From a virus (Duplodnaviria > Heunggongvirae > Uroviricota > Caudoviricetes), in IMG/VR virus record IMGVR_UViG_2778261216_000003: 36,341 bases of DNA; one strand, 5' to 3'. Below are positions 18,231 to 36,099 of the stretch, piece by piece. Numbering within the stretch: position 1 is the stretch's first letter; each line of letters begins with the position of its first letter. The notes beneath the pieces are model-generated. The model did not search any database and was not told where the DNA came from. It worked only from the letters and a program-made list of their open reading frames with translations. A program made the position numbers and the translations under genes.

Positions 18231-18641
18231 ATGGCTCAGGCTGCCATTTTTAAAGAAATATTCGATCAAGTGCGTAAAGATTTAAACTGTGAATTATTTT
18301 ATTCTGAGCTAAAACGTCACAATATCTCACTTTATATTTACTATTTAGCCACAGATAATATTCACATTGTGTTAGAAAACGACAACATAGTGTTAGTAAA
18401 AGGACTCAAAAAGGTTGTAAATGTTAAATTCTCCAGAAACAAACATCTTATAGAGACCTCCTATAATAAGTTGAAATCAAAAGAAATCACATTTCAACAA
18501 TACAGGGAAAATCTTGCTAAAGCAGGAGTTTTCCGATGGGTTACAAATATCCAGGAACACCAAAGATATTACTATGCCTTTGATAACTCATTACTATTTA
18601 CTGAAAGCATCCAGAAAACTACACAGATCTTACCACGCTAA
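18231..18641 (+). CDS. YbcV-like protein (DUF1398 family)
   Basis: ORF starting at the second Met ([16 protein letters not shown]...), preceded by a GGAAGG Shine-Dalgarno; followed by an 8-bp-stem hairpin GTCCGGCT...AGCCGGAC. Family assignment from recall of DLP12 ybcV. Confidence 0.55.
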
Positions 18642-27134: not shown

Positions 27135-28922
27135 ATGGACGATATTAATATCAGCCTCGATGAACTTAACACTATTGATTTATCCCCCTTAATCCAGAGT
27201 AAGCTGCCAGTTACCTGCTTTGATATCACAAAGTATCTTTCTAGCCTAGGTGATGGAAGAGCGGAGATAAGACTGCTAACCCATATTTGCGGTTTTCACT
27301 TTCGTCCCGAAAATCCACAGGTACCATTTGGTCCGTGCTTTCAAAGCAGCCAAGGTAGATCTGCAATTCCGGATGACATTAACGGGTTGTCGCTGGAGGT
27401 ACTTTCTCAATTTTGCCCGACGATAGAGCTACCCGAACTTCAAGCTCGTATTGCTGATACACTTTGGGTTCGTAAAATTGGTGGAATCCGTTTTCCTTTG
27501 CTGGCAGTCCGTGCTTATTATGCGTCCAGTATAGCTATTATGACATCGCAAGGGACGTGGGTTAGTGCTTTAGAACGCCTAGAGCGTGCGCTTAGGCTGT
27601 GTTGTTTTTTTCGAAAGAATACTGATTTCAGGGATGAATTTGATCAGCTTTCGGCACATCTACTAGCAGAGTATGAACGTACCAGAGAACAAGGCGATTC
27701 ACCTTATCCGCTGCGACTCCTGCAACTCGATATCGACTGTAAAGTGAGTGAGCCATCTTTTATTGCCCAGGAACTCCTGTTTCTGACAAAAAACTATCTG
27801 GCTCAAAAATTATTTTCATTTGCCGTCGATGCCTGTAAAACCGCAATCACGATTGCGAATAGGTGCTGTGACAGAGATACACAGTTTGAATTCTGGCGGC
27901 TTCTTGCCGATACACATCTGGAAGAGTCAAAATTCCAAGATGGCGGTATGATTTCGGCAGCCTGCATGCAGAATGCTATTGAAGCACTGGCTAATATTCC
28001 AGGAACCCGAATAGAACGTCTTGCGCTGTATGAAGAAATGCGTGATTACCAAATCGAATCCCGTCACCAGATGTCTATCCTTCAGTCTCCCCCTCAAGAT
28101 ATTAGTGAGATTGTCCATCAAGCCAAGAGTCGGGTAGTCGGAAGAGATATGTTTGATATGGTTTTCAGACTTGCGATGCTGGTCTGTCGGCCAACCAGCA
28201 TTGAGAGACTTAAGGCTCAAGCAATAGAACAAAAGGCCAACAGCATAGCTTGGATGTTTGGATCAACACATATTGATCATGAGGGAATGACACTTGCTCG
28301 CATACCCGCAGGATTGGGGATTGATGATGCAAATGGGGCAGTTATTTGGCCCATAATGATGACGAGAATGCGTATCGACCATGAGTTGGCAGTAGCTGGG
28401 CAAATTATTCCTGCTACAGATGAGATCACAATGAAATATCCAATCTCGGAGGCGTTTTTTCGCGATATGTTCATCAATCATCCCTTCATCCCGTTTGGGC
28501 ATGAAGAGTTTTTCATCAAGGGTATGGTTTGCGGTTTCAATGGAGATTTTATGACGGCATGCCACGTGTTGATTCCCCAGATCGAAAATAGTCTGAGATA
28601 TGTGGCTAAAATTAAAGGTGAGGAACCATCGCAGCTTCACGGGGACGGTTCGCAAGAGCGAAATGGACTCAAGGGATTACTAGATAATCCACTGATTATT
28701 GAAGCTTTCGGCGTAGACATAATTGGCAATCTTCAGGCCTTACTGGTAGATAAAATCTATGGTGATTTACGAAATCAACTAGCTCACGGATATGTGCCTG
28801 CCGGTTACTACAATCAACCTCCCTGCATTTTTGCATGGTGGCTTGTATTGCACATTCTAATGAACCCTACGGCGAGATACTGGCAAGCCACTTATGGCCA
28901 AGAGAGTGAGGCTCAGACTTAA
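27135..28922 (+). CDS. Large hypothetical protein (595 aa) with C-terminal HEPN-like R-x4-H-G motif; candidate anti-phage defense / abortive-infection moron
   Basis: Long uninterrupted ORF with AAGGTGA Shine-Dalgarno; opposite strand to all flanking prophage genes; visibly more AT-rich than neighbours; C-terminus contains DKIYGDLRNQLAHGYV (R546-x4-H551-G); no Walker A motif; a palindrome TTAATG-n9-CATTAA lies just upstream. Confidence 0.75.
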   Translation: MDDINISLDELNTIDLSPLIQSKLPVTCFDITKYLSSLGDGRAEIRLLTHICGFHFRPENPQVPFGPCFQSSQGRSAIPDDINGLSLEVLSQFCPTIELPELQARIADTLWVRKIGGIRFPLLAVRAYYASSIAIMTSQGTWVSALERLERALRLCCFFRKNTDFRDEFDQLSAHLLAEYERTREQGDSPYPLRLLQLDIDCKVSEPSFIAQELLFLTKNYLAQKLFSFAVDACKTAITIANRCCDRDTQFEFWRLLADTHLEESKFQDGGMISAACMQNAIEALANIPGTRIERLALYEEMRDYQIESRHQMSILQSPPQDISEIVHQAKSRVVGRDMFDMVFRLAMLVCRPTSIERLKAQAIEQKANSIAWMFGSTHIDHEGMTLARIPAGLGIDDANGAVIWPIMMTRMRIDHELAVAGQIIPATDEITMKYPISEAFFRDMFINHPFIPFGHEEFFIKGMVCGFNGDFMTACHVLIPQIENSLRYVAKIKGEEPSQLHGDGSQERNGLKGLLDNPLIIEAFGVDIIGNLQALLVDKIYGDLRNQLAHGYVPAGYYNQPPCIFAWWLVLHILMNPTARYWQATYGQESEAQT

Positions 28923-29140: not shown

Positions 29141-29542
29141 TTATCCCTGATAAAATGCCAGTATGCGCTGCATAACTTCACTCATCCGGCACTCGCGACA
29201 GATTATGTTTAGGCGACTGTCGTAGCGACGTATTTCTCCATCAGGTAACGACCAGATAAGGTCCGGATCAACCACAGCTGTTTTCTTCACCTTTGCCCTC
29301 GAGAGTTTTTTGCGGGCGTTTTGCCAGTCCTTACGCGCCTGTTCAGACGGGAATAACCCGTAGCCGGAGTTGTATACATCGCCACTGGCTACCAGCTCTC
29401 TGGCAAGAACGCTCATCAGATATCTAGTCGCACCTGTTTTAGCTTCCAGTTGCCGTAACGTCTCACGACCGCTCTGGCGCACGAGTTCCACCACCTGCCC
29501 TTTAATTTTTTCCCGCTCTTCTTGTGTAAAAACTTTTGCCAC
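29141..29542 (-). CDS. Hypothetical protein with putative HTH/winged-helix region (133 aa)
   Basis: ORF immediately downstream of the O-like replication gene; the segment ETLRQLEAKTGATRYLMSVLAREL looks HTH-like; no family recognised. Confidence 0.55.
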   Translation of the reverse strand: MAKVFTQEEREKIKGQVVELVRQSGRETLRQLEAKTGATRYLMSVLARELVASGDVYNSGYGLFPSEQARKDWQNARKKLSRAKVKKTAVVDPDLIWSLPDGEIRRYDSRLNIICRECRMSEVMQRILAFYQG

Positions 29543-29582
29543 AAGTCCCCCTTAAAATTACCTCATGACCTGAAATCAAAAC

Positions 29583-30548
29583 TTATCCTCTGAAACCAGG
29601 CGGAATTTCTGTATCCGGTTCAGAAATATGATTAACACAACGCTGTACAGGTGAACGCCCCAGGCGGATGACCAGTTCGTCCCATTTTTCGCGGAGCTTT
29701 GACGGGCTCATGATGTTTTTTACCCAGAATGGATCCCGCTGTACCCGACCAAACATTTCACAAATTTGTCTGTGGCTTCTGCCATCCAGCATCCGCATTG
29801 TGCGCACATCATTGGCCCAGACAGTCCAGTTAGGCTCTTTTGGTCGCATGATCTCGCCATCATCACTGGCGGCCTGTTCGTAGAGACCCACGATCCGCCC
29901 CCATATCCACTGCGCACACGCCAGATCCTCCTGGCTACCCCACTGGCGTTTTTTCGCACTAAACACAACTGCGCCAGGGTGCCGGATTAAAAAATCCTGT
30001 TCAGCCGTCTGCGGGTCCGGTTGCGAAGCTTCCGGACGAAAAGTGTTTTTATTCTCTGTAGTAATCTCTGTTGTATTCTCTGTAGGATCATCGGGCCATT
30101 TTGACCCGATGACATTGGGTCGTTTTGAACCAATGGAGCGTTTCATTTTGACCTCTTCCATCGTGTCATTTTGACCTGATGGAGCGGCGCATTTTGAACC
30201 GATGGATTCGCTCAATTTGCCATCATCTAAAAGCTCGCTTCCATAGTTAATCGTGTAGAAATTGGTCATATCGCGCTTTGATTTATTGAGCTTTTCACAA
30301 CGCAAAAGCCCCAGCGTTTTCAGACTTGCAAACGCGCGCTTTAACGTTGACTCTGACCAGAATGGGAACTGTTCCAGCCATTGTTCCGTTGTGTTGTAAA
30401 TCCAGCGAACACCATCACATTCCATGCCGGAATTGGTATCTCTCAACCAGTAATGCAACTGCTGCAACACAATGGCTTCATTTAAGCCAATCTTCATCGC
30501 AAGCTGTGTGTTTATAACCAGTGGGCGTTCAGCAAAAAGAAGGCTCAT
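29583..30548 (-). CDS. Replication initiator (lambda O-like replisome organizer) containing the origin iterons
   Basis: N-terminal HTH-type region (MSLLFAERPLVINTQLAMKIGLNEAIVLQQLHYWL); the coding sequence contains five direct repeats with 23-bp spacing that translate to the repeated SIGSK motif, as lambda O contains ori-lambda. Start is taken at the ATG at 30548 (the track ORF starts at 30602). Confidence 0.75.
   Translation of the reverse strand: MSLLFAERPLVINTQLAMKIGLNEAIVLQQLHYWLRDTNSGMECDGVRWIYNTTEQWLEQFPFWSESTLKRAFASLKTLGLLRCEKLNKSKRDMTNFYTINYGSELLDDGKLSESIGSKCAAPSGQNDTMEEVKMKRSIGSKRPNVIGSKWPDDPTENTTEITTENKNTFRPEASQPDPQTAEQDFLIRHPGAVVFSAKKRQWGSQEDLACAQWIWGRIVGLYEQAASDDGEIMRPKEPNWTVWANDVRTMRMLDGRSHRQICEMFGRVQRDPFWVKNIMSPSKLREKWDELVIRLGRSPVQRCVNHISEPDTEIPPGFRG
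30098..30212. repeat. Origin of replication iterons: five copies of C(A/G)TTTTGA(A)CC at 23-bp period, flanked by an AT-rich segment with TTCTCTGTAG x2 (about 30040-30090)
   Basis: Repeat cores start at about 30098, 30121, 30144, 30167 and 30190. The first two units are internally palindromic (TCATCGGG...CCCGATGA; CATTGG...CCAATG). Confidence 0.6.
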
Positions 30549-31050
30549 AATTCCATCCAGCTTTTTGTTGGTATTGCTGTCGATACGCAAGTTTGAAAGC
30601 AATTGCTTTTTCTATAAGTTCGTCAGTTTCACGATCCACTACGGCAGGATCAGCAAAAAGCAGTCCGGACTCCACCACATCGCCATATTCTTTGTTTAAC
30701 CCGGCGATCATGTACGTGATGCTTTTTCCGTCACTAATTTCACGATACAACCTGAAATCATTAATCCGGATAGCCTCCATAATTGCAGGCACTAGCGCCG
30801 TGAACTTTTCACGCTTATCCCTGGTGTCGATAGCCTTCCAGCGTTCGAATATCTTCACTCGATTAACGCCAAGCGCTCGCTGATCAACCGCGCCACCTTC
30901 ATCTGTGACACGCTGAACATCGATGTTCGGGCGCTCTTTCAAAGCCCAGAATGCTTCAGTGATTAATATCGTCGCCTGCTCCTGTGTCATTCCTGGTCGA
31001 CATATCCAGGCATCCAGAGCCTCACGAGCCTGTTCAGGAGTGATTTTCAT
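30529..31050 (-). CDS. Hypothetical early-operon protein (173 aa), between Cro-like DicC and the replication initiator
   Basis: ORF with start overlapping the dicC-like stop and end overlapping the O-like start; occupies the cII/YdaT-like position; no family recognised. Confidence 0.55.
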   Translation of the reverse strand: MKITPEQAREALDAWICRPGMTQEQATILITEAFWALKERPNIDVQRVTDEGGAVDQRALGVNRVKIFERWKAIDTRDKREKFTALVPAIMEAIRINDFRLYREISDGKSITYMIAGLNKEYGDVVESGLLFADPAVVDRETDELIEKAIAFKLAYRQQYQQKAGWNYEPSFC

Positions 31051-31261
31051 TGTTCAACCGCCCCGCCCGCTTCGTCTTACGATATTCGTCATAAACCTTG
31101 GGATCATACAGAAGCTCGCCGCCAGATGCCTCCTGTAGACGCATCGCGCGACCTTCAGGAACCAGCTCTTGCCATTGAGAAACAGCAGATGGGTCAACGC
31201 CAGCAGCTTTCGCTACTTTGGCTTTCGTACCGTAAAAATTAATTACGTCTGATTTAAACAT
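31034..31261 (-). CDS. dicC: Cro-like repressor DicC (75 aa)
   Basis: From the ATG at 31261 (GGAGGTG Shine-Dalgarno): MFKSDVINFYGTKAKVAKAAGVDPSAVSQWQELVPEGRAMRLQEASGGELLYDPKVYDEYRK...; divergent from dicA across a 77-bp intergenic region. Confidence 0.75.
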   Translation of the reverse strand: MFKSDVINFYGTKAKVAKAAGVDPSAVSQWQELVPEGRAMRLQEASGGELLYDPKVYDEYRKTKRAGRLNNENHS

Positions 31262-31338
31262 CGCACCTCCAGTATTGAGTTTTCTCAATGCTAATCACTC
31301 AAGGAATCTCAAGTCAAGGGTTATTAAGATATCTAAAT
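31262..31338. promoter_or_regulatory. Divergent promoter/operator region of the immunity switch (dicA to the right, dicC to the left)
   Basis: 77-bp intergenic region containing the inverted repeat ATTGAGttttCTCAAT and a second partial dyad (TCAAGgaatcTCAAG); typical repressor/Cro operator architecture. Confidence 0.5.
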
Positions 31339-31746
31339 ATGAACGAGAAAACTTTAGGTCAACGCATTAGAGAAAGACGTAAGCAGGTAGGTTTAAGTCA
31401 AAACGGTTTAAGCAAAGCTGCTGGCGTATCTGGCTCATCAATTTCATTATGGGAAAGTGACCATACAGCCCCGCGCGGGCAAAATTTGCATCGCCTCGCC
31501 GAGGTATTGCAATGTTCACCAACCTGGATACTGTTTGGCGACGAGGACAAAACACCAGCTCCCCCTGTTTCACTCGATAGTGCCTTAGACTTATCGGAAG
31601 ATGAGTTAGAGATGCTGCGTTTGTATCGCGCACTTCCTAAATCAGAGCAACAAGCACAACTCAGCGAACTCCGCGCCCGCGTTGAGAATTTTAATCGCCT
31701 GTTCACCGAGCTATTAGAGGCTCGCAAACGCAACAAGCATCAATAA
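31339..31746 (+). CDS. dicA: Prophage repressor DicA (XRE-family HTH, 135 aa)
   Basis: From the ATG at 31339: MNEKTLGQRIRERRKQVGLSQNGLSKAAGVSGSSISLWESDHTAPRGQNLHRLAEVLQCSPTWILFGDEDK...; the HTH and the LQCSPTWILFGDEDK block match recalled K-12 DicA. Confidence 0.85.
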   Translation: MNEKTLGQRIRERRKQVGLSQNGLSKAAGVSGSSISLWESDHTAPRGQNLHRLAEVLQCSPTWILFGDEDKTPAPPVSLDSALDLSEDELEMLRLYRALPKSEQQAQLSELRARVENFNRLFTELLEARKRNKHQ

Positions 31747-33627: not shown

Positions 33628-36099
33628 ATGAGTAAAGTCTTTATTTGCGCCGCTATTCCTGACGAACTGGCAACAAGGGAAGAAGGCGCTGTGGCTGTAG
33701 CCACAGCCATTGAAGCTGGCGACGAACGCCGTGCTCGAGCAAAATTTCACTGGCAATTCCTGGAACATTATCCGGCTGCTCAGGACTGCGCTTATAAATT
33801 TATTGTCTGCGAGGATAAACCTGGCATACCCCGCCCTGCCCTCGATTCATGGGATGCTGAATATATGCAGGAAAACCGCTGGGATGAGGAGTCTGCTTCT
33901 TTTGTCCCGGTTGAGACTGAATCCGATCCGATGAACGTCACTTTTGACAAGCTGGCCCCTGAAGTACAGAACGCTGTCATGGTTAAGTTCGACACATGTG
34001 AAAACATCACCGTTGATATGGTTATTAGCGCACAGGAATTGTTGCAGGAAGACATGGCAACATTCGACGGACATATCGTTGAAGCGTTGATGAAAATGCC
34101 AGAAGTTAACGCCATGTATCCGGAGCTTAAGTTGCACGCCATTGGGTGGGTTAAGCATAAATGTATTCCTGGTGCTAAATGGCCCGAAATTCAGGCAGAG
34201 ATGCGCATCTGGAAAAAACGTCGCGAAGGTGAACGCAAGGAAACCGGAAAATACACGTCTGTTGTTGATCTCGCCCGCGCCAGAGCCAATCAACAGTACA
34301 CTGAAAATTCAACAGGAAAAATCAGCCCGGTCATTGCTGCCATTCATCGCGAATACAAGCAGACATGGAAAACACTGGATGACGAACTGGCCTACGCTCT
34401 CTGGCCTGGTGATGTGGATGCCGGAAACATTGACGGCAGCATCCATCGCTGGGCAAAAAATGAAGTTATCGATAACGACCGCGAAGACTGGAAGCGTATC
34501 TCGGCATCAATGCGCAAACAGCCTGATGCCCTTCGCTACGACCGCCAAACTATTTTTGGCCTTGTCCGTGAACGTCCGATCGACATTCACAAAGATCCCG
34601 TAGCACTGAACAAATATATCTGCGAATACCTGACGACAAAGGGCGTGTTTGAGAATGAAGAAACAGACCTGGGCACTGTTGATGTTCTCCAGTCATCAGA
34701 AACACAAACTGATGCAGTGGAAACTGAGGTATCTGATATCCCAAAAAATGAAACCGCGCCGGAAGCTGAACCATCTGTAGAGCGTGAGGGGCCGTTCTAT
34801 TTCCTCTTCGCAGATAAGGACGGAGAAAAATACGGTCGCGCAAACAAACTTTCTGGTCTGGATAAGGCACTGGCTGCTGGCGCCACTGAAATCACAAAAG
34901 AAGAATATTTTGCCCGAAAAAATGGCACATACACGGGCTTACCGCAAAATGTAGATACCGCTGAAGATTCAGAACAACCAGAGCCGATAAAAGTTACCGC
35001 TGACGAAGTAAACAAAATTATGCAGGCAGCCAATATCATCCAGCCTGACGCCGATAAGTTGCTTGCTGCATCACGTGGTGAATTTGTTGAAGGGATTAGT
35101 GACCCGAATGATCCGAAATGGGTTAAGGGGATCCAGACCCGCGATTCTGTGAACCAGAACCAGCATGAATCGGAACGGAACTACCAAAAAGCGGAACAAA
35201 ACAGCCCAAATGCGTTACAAAACGAGCCAGAAACGAAACAGCCTGAATCAGTGGCGCAACAGGAAGTGGAAAAAGTCTGCACCGCCTGCGGTCAGACCGG
35301 CGGCGGCAACTGCCCTGATTGTGGCGCGGTAATGGGCGACGCAACATACCAGGAAACATTCGATGAAGAGTATCAGGTTGAAGTTCAGGAAGATGATCCG
35401 GAGAAAATGGAAGGCGCTGAACATCCACACAAGGAGAACACTGGCGGCAATCAGCATCACGATAGCGATAATGAAACTGGCGAGACGGCAGATCACTCAA
35501 TTAAGGTGAACGGTCATCACGAAATCACATCCACCAGCAGGACGTGTGACCATCTAATGATCGACCTTGAAACCATGGGAAAAAATCCTGATGCCCCGAT
35601 CATCTCAATAGGTGCAATATTTTTCGATCCGCAAACCGGAGATATGGGACCGGAATTTATTAAGACTATCGATCTGGAAACTGCTGGCGGAGTCATTGAT
35701 CGGGACACCATTAAATGGTGGTTTAAGCAATCACGCGAAGCGCAATCTGCCATTATGACCGATGAAATCCCGTTAGATGATGCACTGTTACAATTGCGGG
35801 AATTTATCGACGAAAACTCCGGTGAATTTTTTGTTCAGGTCTGGGGAAATGGAGCCAACTTCGACAACACGATTTTGCGCCGTTCATACGAACGGCAGGG
35901 GATCCCCTGCCCGTGGCGTTACTACAACGATCGCGATGTACGCACAATCGTTGAGCTGGGGAAAGCCATAGACTTCGATGCCAGAACGGCTATTCAATTC
36001 GAAGGTGAGCGCCATAATGCACTTGATGACGCCCGTTACCAGGCAAAATACGTTTCAGTTATCTGGCAAAAACTGATCCCGAGTCAGGCTGATTCTTAA
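33628..36099 (+). CDS. Prophage exonuclease (823 aa) with C-terminal DnaQ-like DEDDh 3'-5' exonuclease domain
   Basis: C-terminal ~185 aa carry Exo I (MIDLETMG), Exo II (VWGNGANFDNT) and Exo III (HNALDDARYQAKYV) motifs; a long acidic middle region and a CxxC...CxxC pair (CTACGQTGGGNCPDCG) lie upstream; positioned downstream of dicB/ydfD where Qin carries ydfE. Confidence 0.78.
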   Translation: MSKVFICAAIPDELATREEGAVAVATAIEAGDERRARAKFHWQFLEHYPAAQDCAYKFIVCEDKPGIPRPALDSWDAEYMQENRWDEESASFVPVETESDPMNVTFDKLAPEVQNAVMVKFDTCENITVDMVISAQELLQEDMATFDGHIVEALMKMPEVNAMYPELKLHAIGWVKHKCIPGAKWPEIQAEMRIWKKRREGERKETGKYTSVVDLARARANQQYTENSTGKISPVIAAIHREYKQTWKTLDDELAYALWPGDVDAGNIDGSIHRWAKNEVIDNDREDWKRISASMRKQPDALRYDRQTIFGLVRERPIDIHKDPVALNKYICEYLTTKGVFENEETDLGTVDVLQSSETQTDAVETEVSDIPKNETAPEAEPSVEREGPFYFLFADKDGEKYGRANKLSGLDKALAAGATEITKEEYFARKNGTYTGLPQNVDTAEDSEQPEPIKVTADEVNKIMQAANIIQPDADKLLAASRGEFVEGISDPNDPKWVKGIQTRDSVNQNQHESERNYQKAEQNSPNALQNEPETKQPESVAQQEVEKVCTACGQTGGGNCPDCGAVMGDATYQETFDEEYQVEVQEDDPEKMEGAEHPHKENTGGNQHHDSDNETGETADHSIKVNGHHEITSTSRTCDHLMIDLETMGKNPDAPIISIGAIFFDPQTGDMGPEFIKTIDLETAGGVIDRDTIKWWFKQSREAQSAIMTDEIPLDDALLQLREFIDENSGEFFVQVWGNGANFDNTILRRSYERQGIPCPWRYYNDRDVRTIVELGKAIDFDARTAIQFEGERHNALDDARYQAKYVSVIWQKLIPSQADS

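Follow-up and report, generated by a model that had tools for sequence, protein, structure and literature searches.

The region 30040-30227 of IMGVR_UViG_2778261216_000003, a 36,341-nucleotide IMG/VR virus record of the Caudoviricetes (this whole stretch of DNA is referred to below as the window), probably represents the vegetative replication origin of a lambdoid prophage, located inside the linker-coding part of its own initiator gene. We give this reading, which is built on sequence comparison, a probability of about 0.85. On the minus strand the region carries five clear 23-nt units (iterons) and a sixth, degenerate unit, the array spanning 30089-30227, next to an A-rich tract of 12-bp repeats. 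An original prediction for this DNA had claimed five direct repeats in 30040-30212; all five are present, with the degenerate unit (U6) found in addition. The gene and the units are listed below, with the unit sequences given for the coding (minus) strand.

29583..30548, minus strand: replication initiator gene, 321 amino acids from ATG (MSLLF...), the open frame reaching a TTG at 30602.
30089-30111, minus strand: iteron U1, CATCGGGTCAAAATGGCCCGATG, a near-perfect 23-bp palindrome (inverted repeat I2, arms 91% complementary).
30113-30135, minus strand: iteron U2, CATTGGTTCAAAACGACCCAATG, palindromic (inverted repeat I7, arms 89% complementary).
30136-30158, minus strand: iteron U3, GAAGAGGTCAAAATGAAACGCTC, with no variation across the same-length alleles compared.
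30159-30181, minus strand: iteron U4, CATCAGGTCAAAATGACACGATG, with the same sequence in Klebsiella phage ST147-VIM1phi7.2.
30182-30204, minus strand: iteron U5, CATCGGTTCAAAATGCGCCGCTC.
30205-30227, minus strand: degenerate iteron U6, GATGATGGCAAATTGAGCGAATC, in 23-nt register with U5.

Spacing from U1 to U6 was 24, 23, 23, 23 and 23 nt, so that the exact 23-bp period originally described holds for the later intervals but not for the first. The palindromic form predicted for the first units was borne out by the arms of U1 and U2. A 46-bp higher-order repeat was also present (U2+U3 and U4+U5), with a self-match of 56% at a lag of 46 and 53% at a lag of 23. Autocorrelation, used as a check of the repeat periodicity, supported the prediction: the self-match of the array exceeded all 2000 dinucleotide-preserving shuffles (0/2000; z = 8.7), making it one of the two strongest periodic signals across the 36-kb window. 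The bare number of CATTTTGACC-like 10-mers in the whole window was unremarkable (8 compared to 3.6 expected, with 3 of 100 shuffles reaching 8), and the signal therefore lies in clustering and phasing. A second iteron cluster with the same motif was looked for in the window and none was found. Compared with the first unit of Staphylococcus phage 42E, U1 has two differing positions, and the U6 core, GGCAAATTG, is similar to the Erwinia/Pseudomonas-type core.

The array is followed in the direction of the gene by the presumed unwinding tract.

30040..30085, minus strand: presumed DNA-unwinding element, three 12-bp repeats plus AAAAACAC, delineated by Tandem Repeats Finder (TRF), a repeat finder and duplex stability.

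The three 12-bp repeats occupy 30050-30085 and read CTACAGAGAATA / CAACAGAGATTA / CTACAGAGAATA on the coding strand, then AAAAACAC; the plus-strand reading of the repeats is TATTCTCTGTAG/TAATCTCTGTTG/TATTCTCTGTAG. The tract as a whole (30040-30085) is A-rich on the coding strand and has the product TENTTEITTENK. With a GC content of 28-35% in the 12-mer segment, the AT-rich segment that had been predicted beside the array is there, although it holds three 12-bp repeats and not the two copies proposed. Positions 30046-30085 form the least stable 40-mer of the initiator gene (-44.6 kcal/mol), and only 1.3% of the 40-mers in the window are less stable. A CAGAGA core was found in 89 of 89 distinct relatives, at 53 times the background density and with copies 11-12 nt apart, which fall in more than one reading frame in 21 of the 89. 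These relatives range from E. coli to Staphylococcus phages, covering phages of Proteobacteria and Firmicutes, and 86 of the 89 carry repeats of 22-24 bp period at the same position of the gene. Across both groups (relatives L082-L172) an (A/C)CAGAGAnTAC repeat is kept as DNA, and one allele that is otherwise near-identical (L034) has five 12-mer copies compared to three. In the lambda O gene a single TCAGAGAAT lies just past the AT-rich tract (gene nt 479), possibly but not necessarily a related element.

The likely start of the initiator gene is the ATG at 30548, and the gene of phage HannyBb is annotated from the same ATG. The protein matches phrog_391 ('replication initiation O-like'; E = 3.5e-92). 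Pfam returned no meaningful family for the whole initiator or for each half at E values up to 10, and an NCBIfam scan of the initiator returned the DnaT tail alone. The domain order is a winged-helix N-terminal domain, an origin-encoded linker, a lambda-O-type C-terminal domain and a DnaT-like tail, with the following positions.

30228..30548, minus strand: N-terminal winged-helix domain (residues 1-107), the presumed iteron reader.
29667..29960, minus strand: lambda-O-type C-terminal domain (about residues 197-294), from BLASTP to lambda O and matches to phrog_2357 and phrog_277.
29586..29648, minus strand: DnaT-like C-terminal tail, the last 21 residues, VQRCVNHISEPDTEIPPGFRG, from alignment to the E. 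coli DnaT C-terminus.

The most fitting description of the initiator is that of a chimera, in which a RepA_N/DnaD-like winged helix is joined to a lambda-O-type C-terminal domain and a DnaT-like tail. Structure modelling predicts a RepA_N/DnaD-type winged helix for the N-terminal domain, and a PDB sequence search with this domain gave no match. YteR was considered as a relative of the C-terminal domain due to weak PDB matches (E about 0.003), which were judged spurious. The initiator end, VNHISEPDTEIPPGFRG, is nearly identical to the C-terminus of the host primosomal protein DnaT, and the tail aligns to DnaT in PDB entries 2ru8, 6aep and 9zbt as well as to positions 160-179 of 179 of NCBIfam NF002770. 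Tail variants PAGFRS and PAGFRG are found on Klebsiella phage and mEp460_4F5 homologues, and the same DnaT-like tail is present on the unrelated initiators of phages vB_EcoM-606R7 and Tritos (L175 and L176). The tail may act as a recruiter of host restart or helicase-loading proteins; a paper on the preprimosome structure states no role for the DnaT C-terminal residues.

The arrangement in the window follows that of lambda, where the origin also lies within the linker-coding region of the initiator gene. The iterons are found at gene nt 322-460 of 966 in the window and 349-433 of 900 in lambda O, those of the window lying between the modelled N-terminal domain and the O-like C-terminal domain. 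In both genes the 40-mer of lowest stability begins right past the last iteron, at -44.6 kcal/mol in the window and -43.0 kcal/mol in lambda, and adenines account for 24 of 49 nt in the coding strand of the window tract and for 25 of 45 in that of lambda. Both have several dyad-symmetric iterons about 20-24 bp apart with a TCAAAA-containing core, and both display the gene order cI, cro, cII-like, initiator. The ori-lambda architecture of the original prediction was thus recovered in iteron position, in the downstream unstable A-rich tract and in the linker location. Its description of the initiator as O-like fits the C-terminal half, in which residues 147-294 align by BLASTP with lambda O 135-270 (E = 3e-27, 34% identity over 148 amino acids), but not the N-terminal domain: the N-terminal 112 residues displayed no similarity to the lambda O N-terminus (hhalign probability 0.1%), and PF04492 (Phage_rep_O), which matched lambda O at E = 5.7e-36, left the window protein unmatched even at E <= 10. 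In lambda, the C-terminal domain of O is the part that engages the P-DnaB complex. Further differences are the number and packing of the iterons (four in lambda, five to six units in a tighter 23-bp tandem array in the window), an unwinding tract composed of sequence-conserved 12-bp CAGAGA repeats, the extra DnaT-like tail and a module with no P gene or other helicase loader (annotation of the window region and of HannyBb). Stx-phage O/ori variants are grouped with ori-lambda as the closest known system (PMC7466680).

The same protein plan and size are found in the RepA_N replicons of Firmicutes (pSK41 and pTZ2162 RepA; PDB 4pta), with 319 amino acids compared to 321 in the window. The Rep protein of pSK41 (319 amino acids) has an N-terminal domain for the binding of four Rep boxes, which lie in the centre of the rep gene; its linker is dispensable and encoded by the origin, and its C-terminal domain is host-specific and exchangeable (PMC5703833). 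RepA_N replicons have iterons that are direct repeats with a semi-palindromic form in which the inverted repeats converge on a poly-A tract (PMC7145576), a grammar that is also followed by the GGTC-AAAA-TGACC units in the central third of the window gene. PF06970 (RepA_N) gave no match to the window protein at E <= 10, a PDB-sequence profile search returned no RepA chain, and in a structural alignment the modelled N-terminal domain has 13% identity to RepA. RepA_N is a plasmid module whereas that of the window is a phage module, and the C-terminal domain of pSK41 Rep is DnaG-interacting whereas that of the window is of lambda-O type. For RepA_N origins, no account of a CAGAGA repeat tract was found, no search having been aimed at one.

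SPP1 also has an origin within its initiator gene. Its oriL lies in gene 38 and consists of AB boxes bound by G38P with an adjacent AT-rich unwinding element, a 356-bp fragment being necessary and sufficient in vitro (PMC5737612). Unlike the phage of the window, SPP1 encodes its own loader and helicase; in a Geobacillus relative of the window protein, G39P-like and DnaB-like genes follow in SPP1 order. The N-terminal domains of G38P and the window protein are not homologous (hhalign probability 0.2%), and gene 38 of SPP1 has no CAAAATG-type units and no shared repeat motifs. Escherichia phages vB_EcoM-606R7 and Tritos have the same genomic slot, C-terminal tail and downstream DUF977 gene as the window, but their initiators have another N-terminal domain and GTCACG iterons about 10-11 bp apart (gene nt ~385-470). 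These iterons are followed by three A-rich 12-mers, ACAGATAAAGAT, which encode TDKDTDKDTD, with no CAGAGA. The arrangement apparently represents a further in-gene origin, alike in design but built from different sequence elements. Since the other N-terminal domain carries other iterons, the specific repeats go with the N-terminal domain family.

Palindromic units of this kind could be initiator sites for autoregulation or copy control only (operator, handcuffing), with replication starting elsewhere. A dimer-binding palindrome is the typical form of an operator, and the iterons of iteron plasmids commonly double as control elements. The sites in the window are, however, mid-gene, about 320 nt past the start codon and not at a promoter, the least stable tract, with its phased 11-12 bp repeats, comes after the units in every case, and the array is the sole cluster of its motif in the window. 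In addition, the same layout is a proven origin in lambda (record annotation), SPP1 (PMC5737612) and pSK41 (PMC5703833), and we regard a role restricted to control as unlikely.

Comparison of the relatives supports an origin that travels with the N-terminal part of the initiator. In 86 of the 89 distinct relatives the repeats are conserved in position, period and palindromic form, with a best period of 22-24 nt between the N-terminal domain and the CAGAGA element; a lack of conservation in related prophages, which would have counted against the original prediction, was thus clearly not seen. The N-terminal domain was found with 46-77% identity in phages of Klebsiella, Erwinia, Pseudomonas, Acinetobacter, Geobacillus, Bacillus, Listeria and Staphylococcus. 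Near-identical units are carried both by Staphylococcus phage 42E, whose C-terminus is of DnaB_2 type, and by Klebsiella phage ST147-VIM1phi7.2, whose C-terminal region differs in sequence. DNA similarity to Klebsiella phages spans exactly 30053-30503, which corresponds to the N-terminal domain, the iterons and the 12-mers. On these comparisons it is the N-terminal domain with which the iterons are co-inherited, not the C-terminal one.

These boundaries also bear on the possibility that the CAGAGA/12-mer tract is mainly a recombination joint for shuffling N- and C-terminal initiator modules and not an unwinding element. The stretch of DNA similar to the Klebsiella phages stops at 30053, on the border of the 12-mers; the tract is followed in different phages by C-terminal domains that differ widely; and 3 to 5 copies occur among near-identical alleles. 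A joint would, however, leave unexplained both the near-absolute synonymous-site conservation of the tract from Gram-positive to Gram-negative phages and its coincidence with the stability minimum, and as the main function of the tract we consider it very unlikely. The joint and unwinding roles are not mutually exclusive.

Within the units a CAAAATG-like core is kept and the flanking arms shift on both sides together, with a family consensus of GGTC-AAAA-TGACC. Examples of arm types are GGGTCAAAATGGCCC, TACCCAAAATGGGTA, TGTTCAAAATGAACA, TTGCTCAAAATGAGCAA, GGGCAAATTGCCC (Erwinia-type) and GTGCCAAGTTGGCAC, and 12 distinct types are perfectly complementary. The mean number of complementary arm pairs was 2.75 of 5 compared to 1.25 of 5 where that core occurs at other places in the loci. 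Arm mismatches on the mRNA strand displayed no G:U bias (20 G:T vs 32 A:C), and an Rfam search of 29400-30800 (E <= 1) gave no match. Arm covariation without this bias, together with the negative Rfam search, points to a duplex site bound by a dimer and not to an RNA hairpin. Compensatory arm changes would also be expected from a conserved hairpin in mRNA or single-stranded DNA (acting in translational pausing, attenuation or RNA stability), but the would-be loop, CAAAATG, is the most conserved part of the unit, and strict phasing of several units at 22-24 bp is a usual mark of proteins that bind duplex DNA cooperatively; hairpins are therefore a highly improbable explanation of the inverted repeats.

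The repeats are DNA elements and not peptide repeats. A period of 23 nt is not a multiple of 3, so a peptide repeat cannot be maintained by the array. The SIGSK motif that had been read as mirroring the repeats is present in the translation (SIGSK, SIGSK and VIGSK), but its recurrences, 69 nt and 24 nt apart, occur only where the 23-nt register meets the reading frame, and the peptides are therefore a by-product of the DNA repeat. In a set of 44 alleles from close relatives, 6.5% of sites were variable in the iterons and 2.5% in the 12-mers, compared to 11.5% in the N-terminal domain, 25% in the linker that follows and 19.4% in the C-terminal domain. Variation at third-codon positions was restricted to 1 of 59 in the repeat zone, compared to 30 of 107 in the N-terminal domain (Fisher P = 6e-6) and 54 of 122 in the C-terminal domain (P = 1e-10). 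Codon choice displayed the same pattern: in the 89 distinct relatives, Thr-Glu was encoded as ACAGAG in 149 of 158 cases in the 12-mer zone compared to 18 of 302 elsewhere in the same loci, both in the Gram-negative phage group (72 of 73 in the zone vs 6 of 124 elsewhere) and in the Gram-positive phage group (77 of 85 vs 12 of 178). Protein-level selection on a repetitive low-complexity peptide linker (SIGSK, TEITTE), with the repeats as its by-product and no role as DNA, would suit a region that codes for a probably disordered interdomain linker, in which model confidence for the N-terminal segment drops at its end (residues 110-112), SIGSK and TE(I/N)TT peptides recur and a TE-containing motif is also widely conserved, but it is already contradicted by the codon and frame data (frozen third positions, ACAGAG choice, CAGAGA in more than one frame in 21 relatives), runs counter to the 23-nt period, the palindromic units and the arm covariation, and has a probability close to nil.

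The initiator gene lies among genes of a lambdoid early region.

31288..31746, plus strand: cI-type repressor gene, divergent from the early operon.
31034..31288, minus strand: cro-like gene (Pfam P22_Cro).
30529..31050, minus strand: cII-like/YdaT gene (Pfam YdaT_toxin; phrog_163 CII-like).
29141-29542, minus strand: DUF977 / 'Ren-like exclusion' / LygF gene, directly after the initiator.

The cro-like and cII-like genes (30529..31288) are upstream of the initiator in the same rightward early operon, and transcription of the operon crosses the origin region. No helicase loader (P, dnaC-like) or dnaB is present directly downstream of the initiator, where the DUF977 gene is found instead. The isolated phage HannyBb has an identical module, and its complete 45-kb genome has no annotated helicase, loader or primase and no other annotated replication gene; the Klebsiella locus that was fetched also has no annotated helicase loader.

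We infer iteron binding, melting, helicase recruitment and origin activity from these sequence features, binding by the initiator having indirect support in the arm covariation and in the co-inheritance of iterons and N-terminal domain. The proposed course is as follows. Early rightward transcription (cro-like, cII-like, initiator) would yield the initiator, and dimers of its N-terminal winged-helix domain would bind the 5-6 semi-palindromic 23-bp iterons cooperatively. At ~2.2 helical turns per unit this would produce a bent or wrapped complex resembling the lambda O-some or the RepA_N-Rep box complex. Stress from the complex, supercoiling and early-operon transcription would then melt the adjacent tract with its three phased 12-bp CAGAGA repeats. 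The C-terminal part (lambda-O-type domain and DnaT-like tail) would bring host DnaB helicase to the melted DNA, the host helicase being proposed since genes for P, DnaC and DnaB are lacking in the phage itself. Two more specific readings are possible, although we hold them to be doubtful. In one, the CAGAGA repeats, which are kept nearly unaltered between phages of Firmicutes and Proteobacteria, would be not just a generic AT-rich tract but an unwinding element with sequence specificity, which the conserved winged-helix domain reads on one strand of the melted DNA. In the other, the DnaT-like tail of loader-less phages like this one would be the plug of the origin complex into the host restart primosome or DnaB-DnaC. 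The proposed single-strand reading would be comparable to DnaA-trios and to plasmid Rep on single-stranded 13-mers.

Several points weigh against the region being an origin that works in this way. At the sequence level the N-terminal domain matched none of the characterised iteron-binding domains (Pfam, hhalign, PDB sequences), so DNA binding by this domain rests on its predicted fold, and the N-terminal domain of DnaD, a fold neighbour, does not bind DNA (PMC7145576). The left arms are poor in three of the six units (U3, U5 and U6), which makes the count of functional sites uncertain. Many of the 89 relatives are close kin and their counts are therefore not independent events, a point mitigated by deep comparisons at about 50% protein identity. 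Helicase recruitment is the least certain step due to the phage having no loader of its own. Finally, a literature search for a described origin or a replication or binding experiment in this initiator family found none.

A number of other features of the window were observed. The DUF977 gene and the final ~60 nt of the initiator gene (the DnaT-like tail) form a DNA segment that is 91-95% identical in phages with otherwise unrelated initiators (H12-H18), which suggests that tail and DUF977 move as one module. Just downstream of DUF977, an open reading frame (ORF) of 595 amino acids on the opposite strand (27135-28922, plus strand) breaks into the early-gene region; at the equivalent place HannyBb has small genes on the strand of the initiator, and the ORF may represent a moron or defence cargo. 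The window's 40-mers of lowest stability cluster at ~18.3-22.2 kb (e.g., 22168, 21894, 18771), indicating a strongly AT-rich block, and TRF identified a 21-bp tandem repeat at 18364-18405. A second periodic tract at 35080-35280 (plus strand; lag 21, 57% self-match) was rejected as a candidate. It codes for a Q/N/E-rich low-complexity linker in an 823-amino-acid exonuclease ORF (33628..36099) and was judged ordinary because its period is a multiple of 3 and it has no discrete units.

Iterons and an unwinding tract inside an initiator gene are a textbook layout (lambda, SPP1, pSK41), and as such the finding comes as no surprise; for the origin of this family no published description was found. 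Of 5,426 complete E. coli genomes, 1,894 carry the cassette, and among the RefSeq records listed the gene is named 'hypothetical protein'. The initiator family has no Pfam model and spans phages of Gram-negative and Gram-positive hosts, and its one chimeric protein links lambda-type and RepA_N-type replicons. Uses would include the annotation of prophage origins, the prediction of replicon incompatibility between prophages and the design of origin-specific tools. Two side leads may touch on open questions, namely the deeply conserved CAGAGA element and the DnaT-like tail on the initiators of loader-less phages. How DnaT and the host preprimosome recruit DnaB/DnaC is stated to be unknown in reviews and in the 2026 preprimosome structure (PMC5778457, PMC13377028). 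A tail that plugs the origin complex into the host primosome would, if true, point to a role for the DnaT C-terminus.

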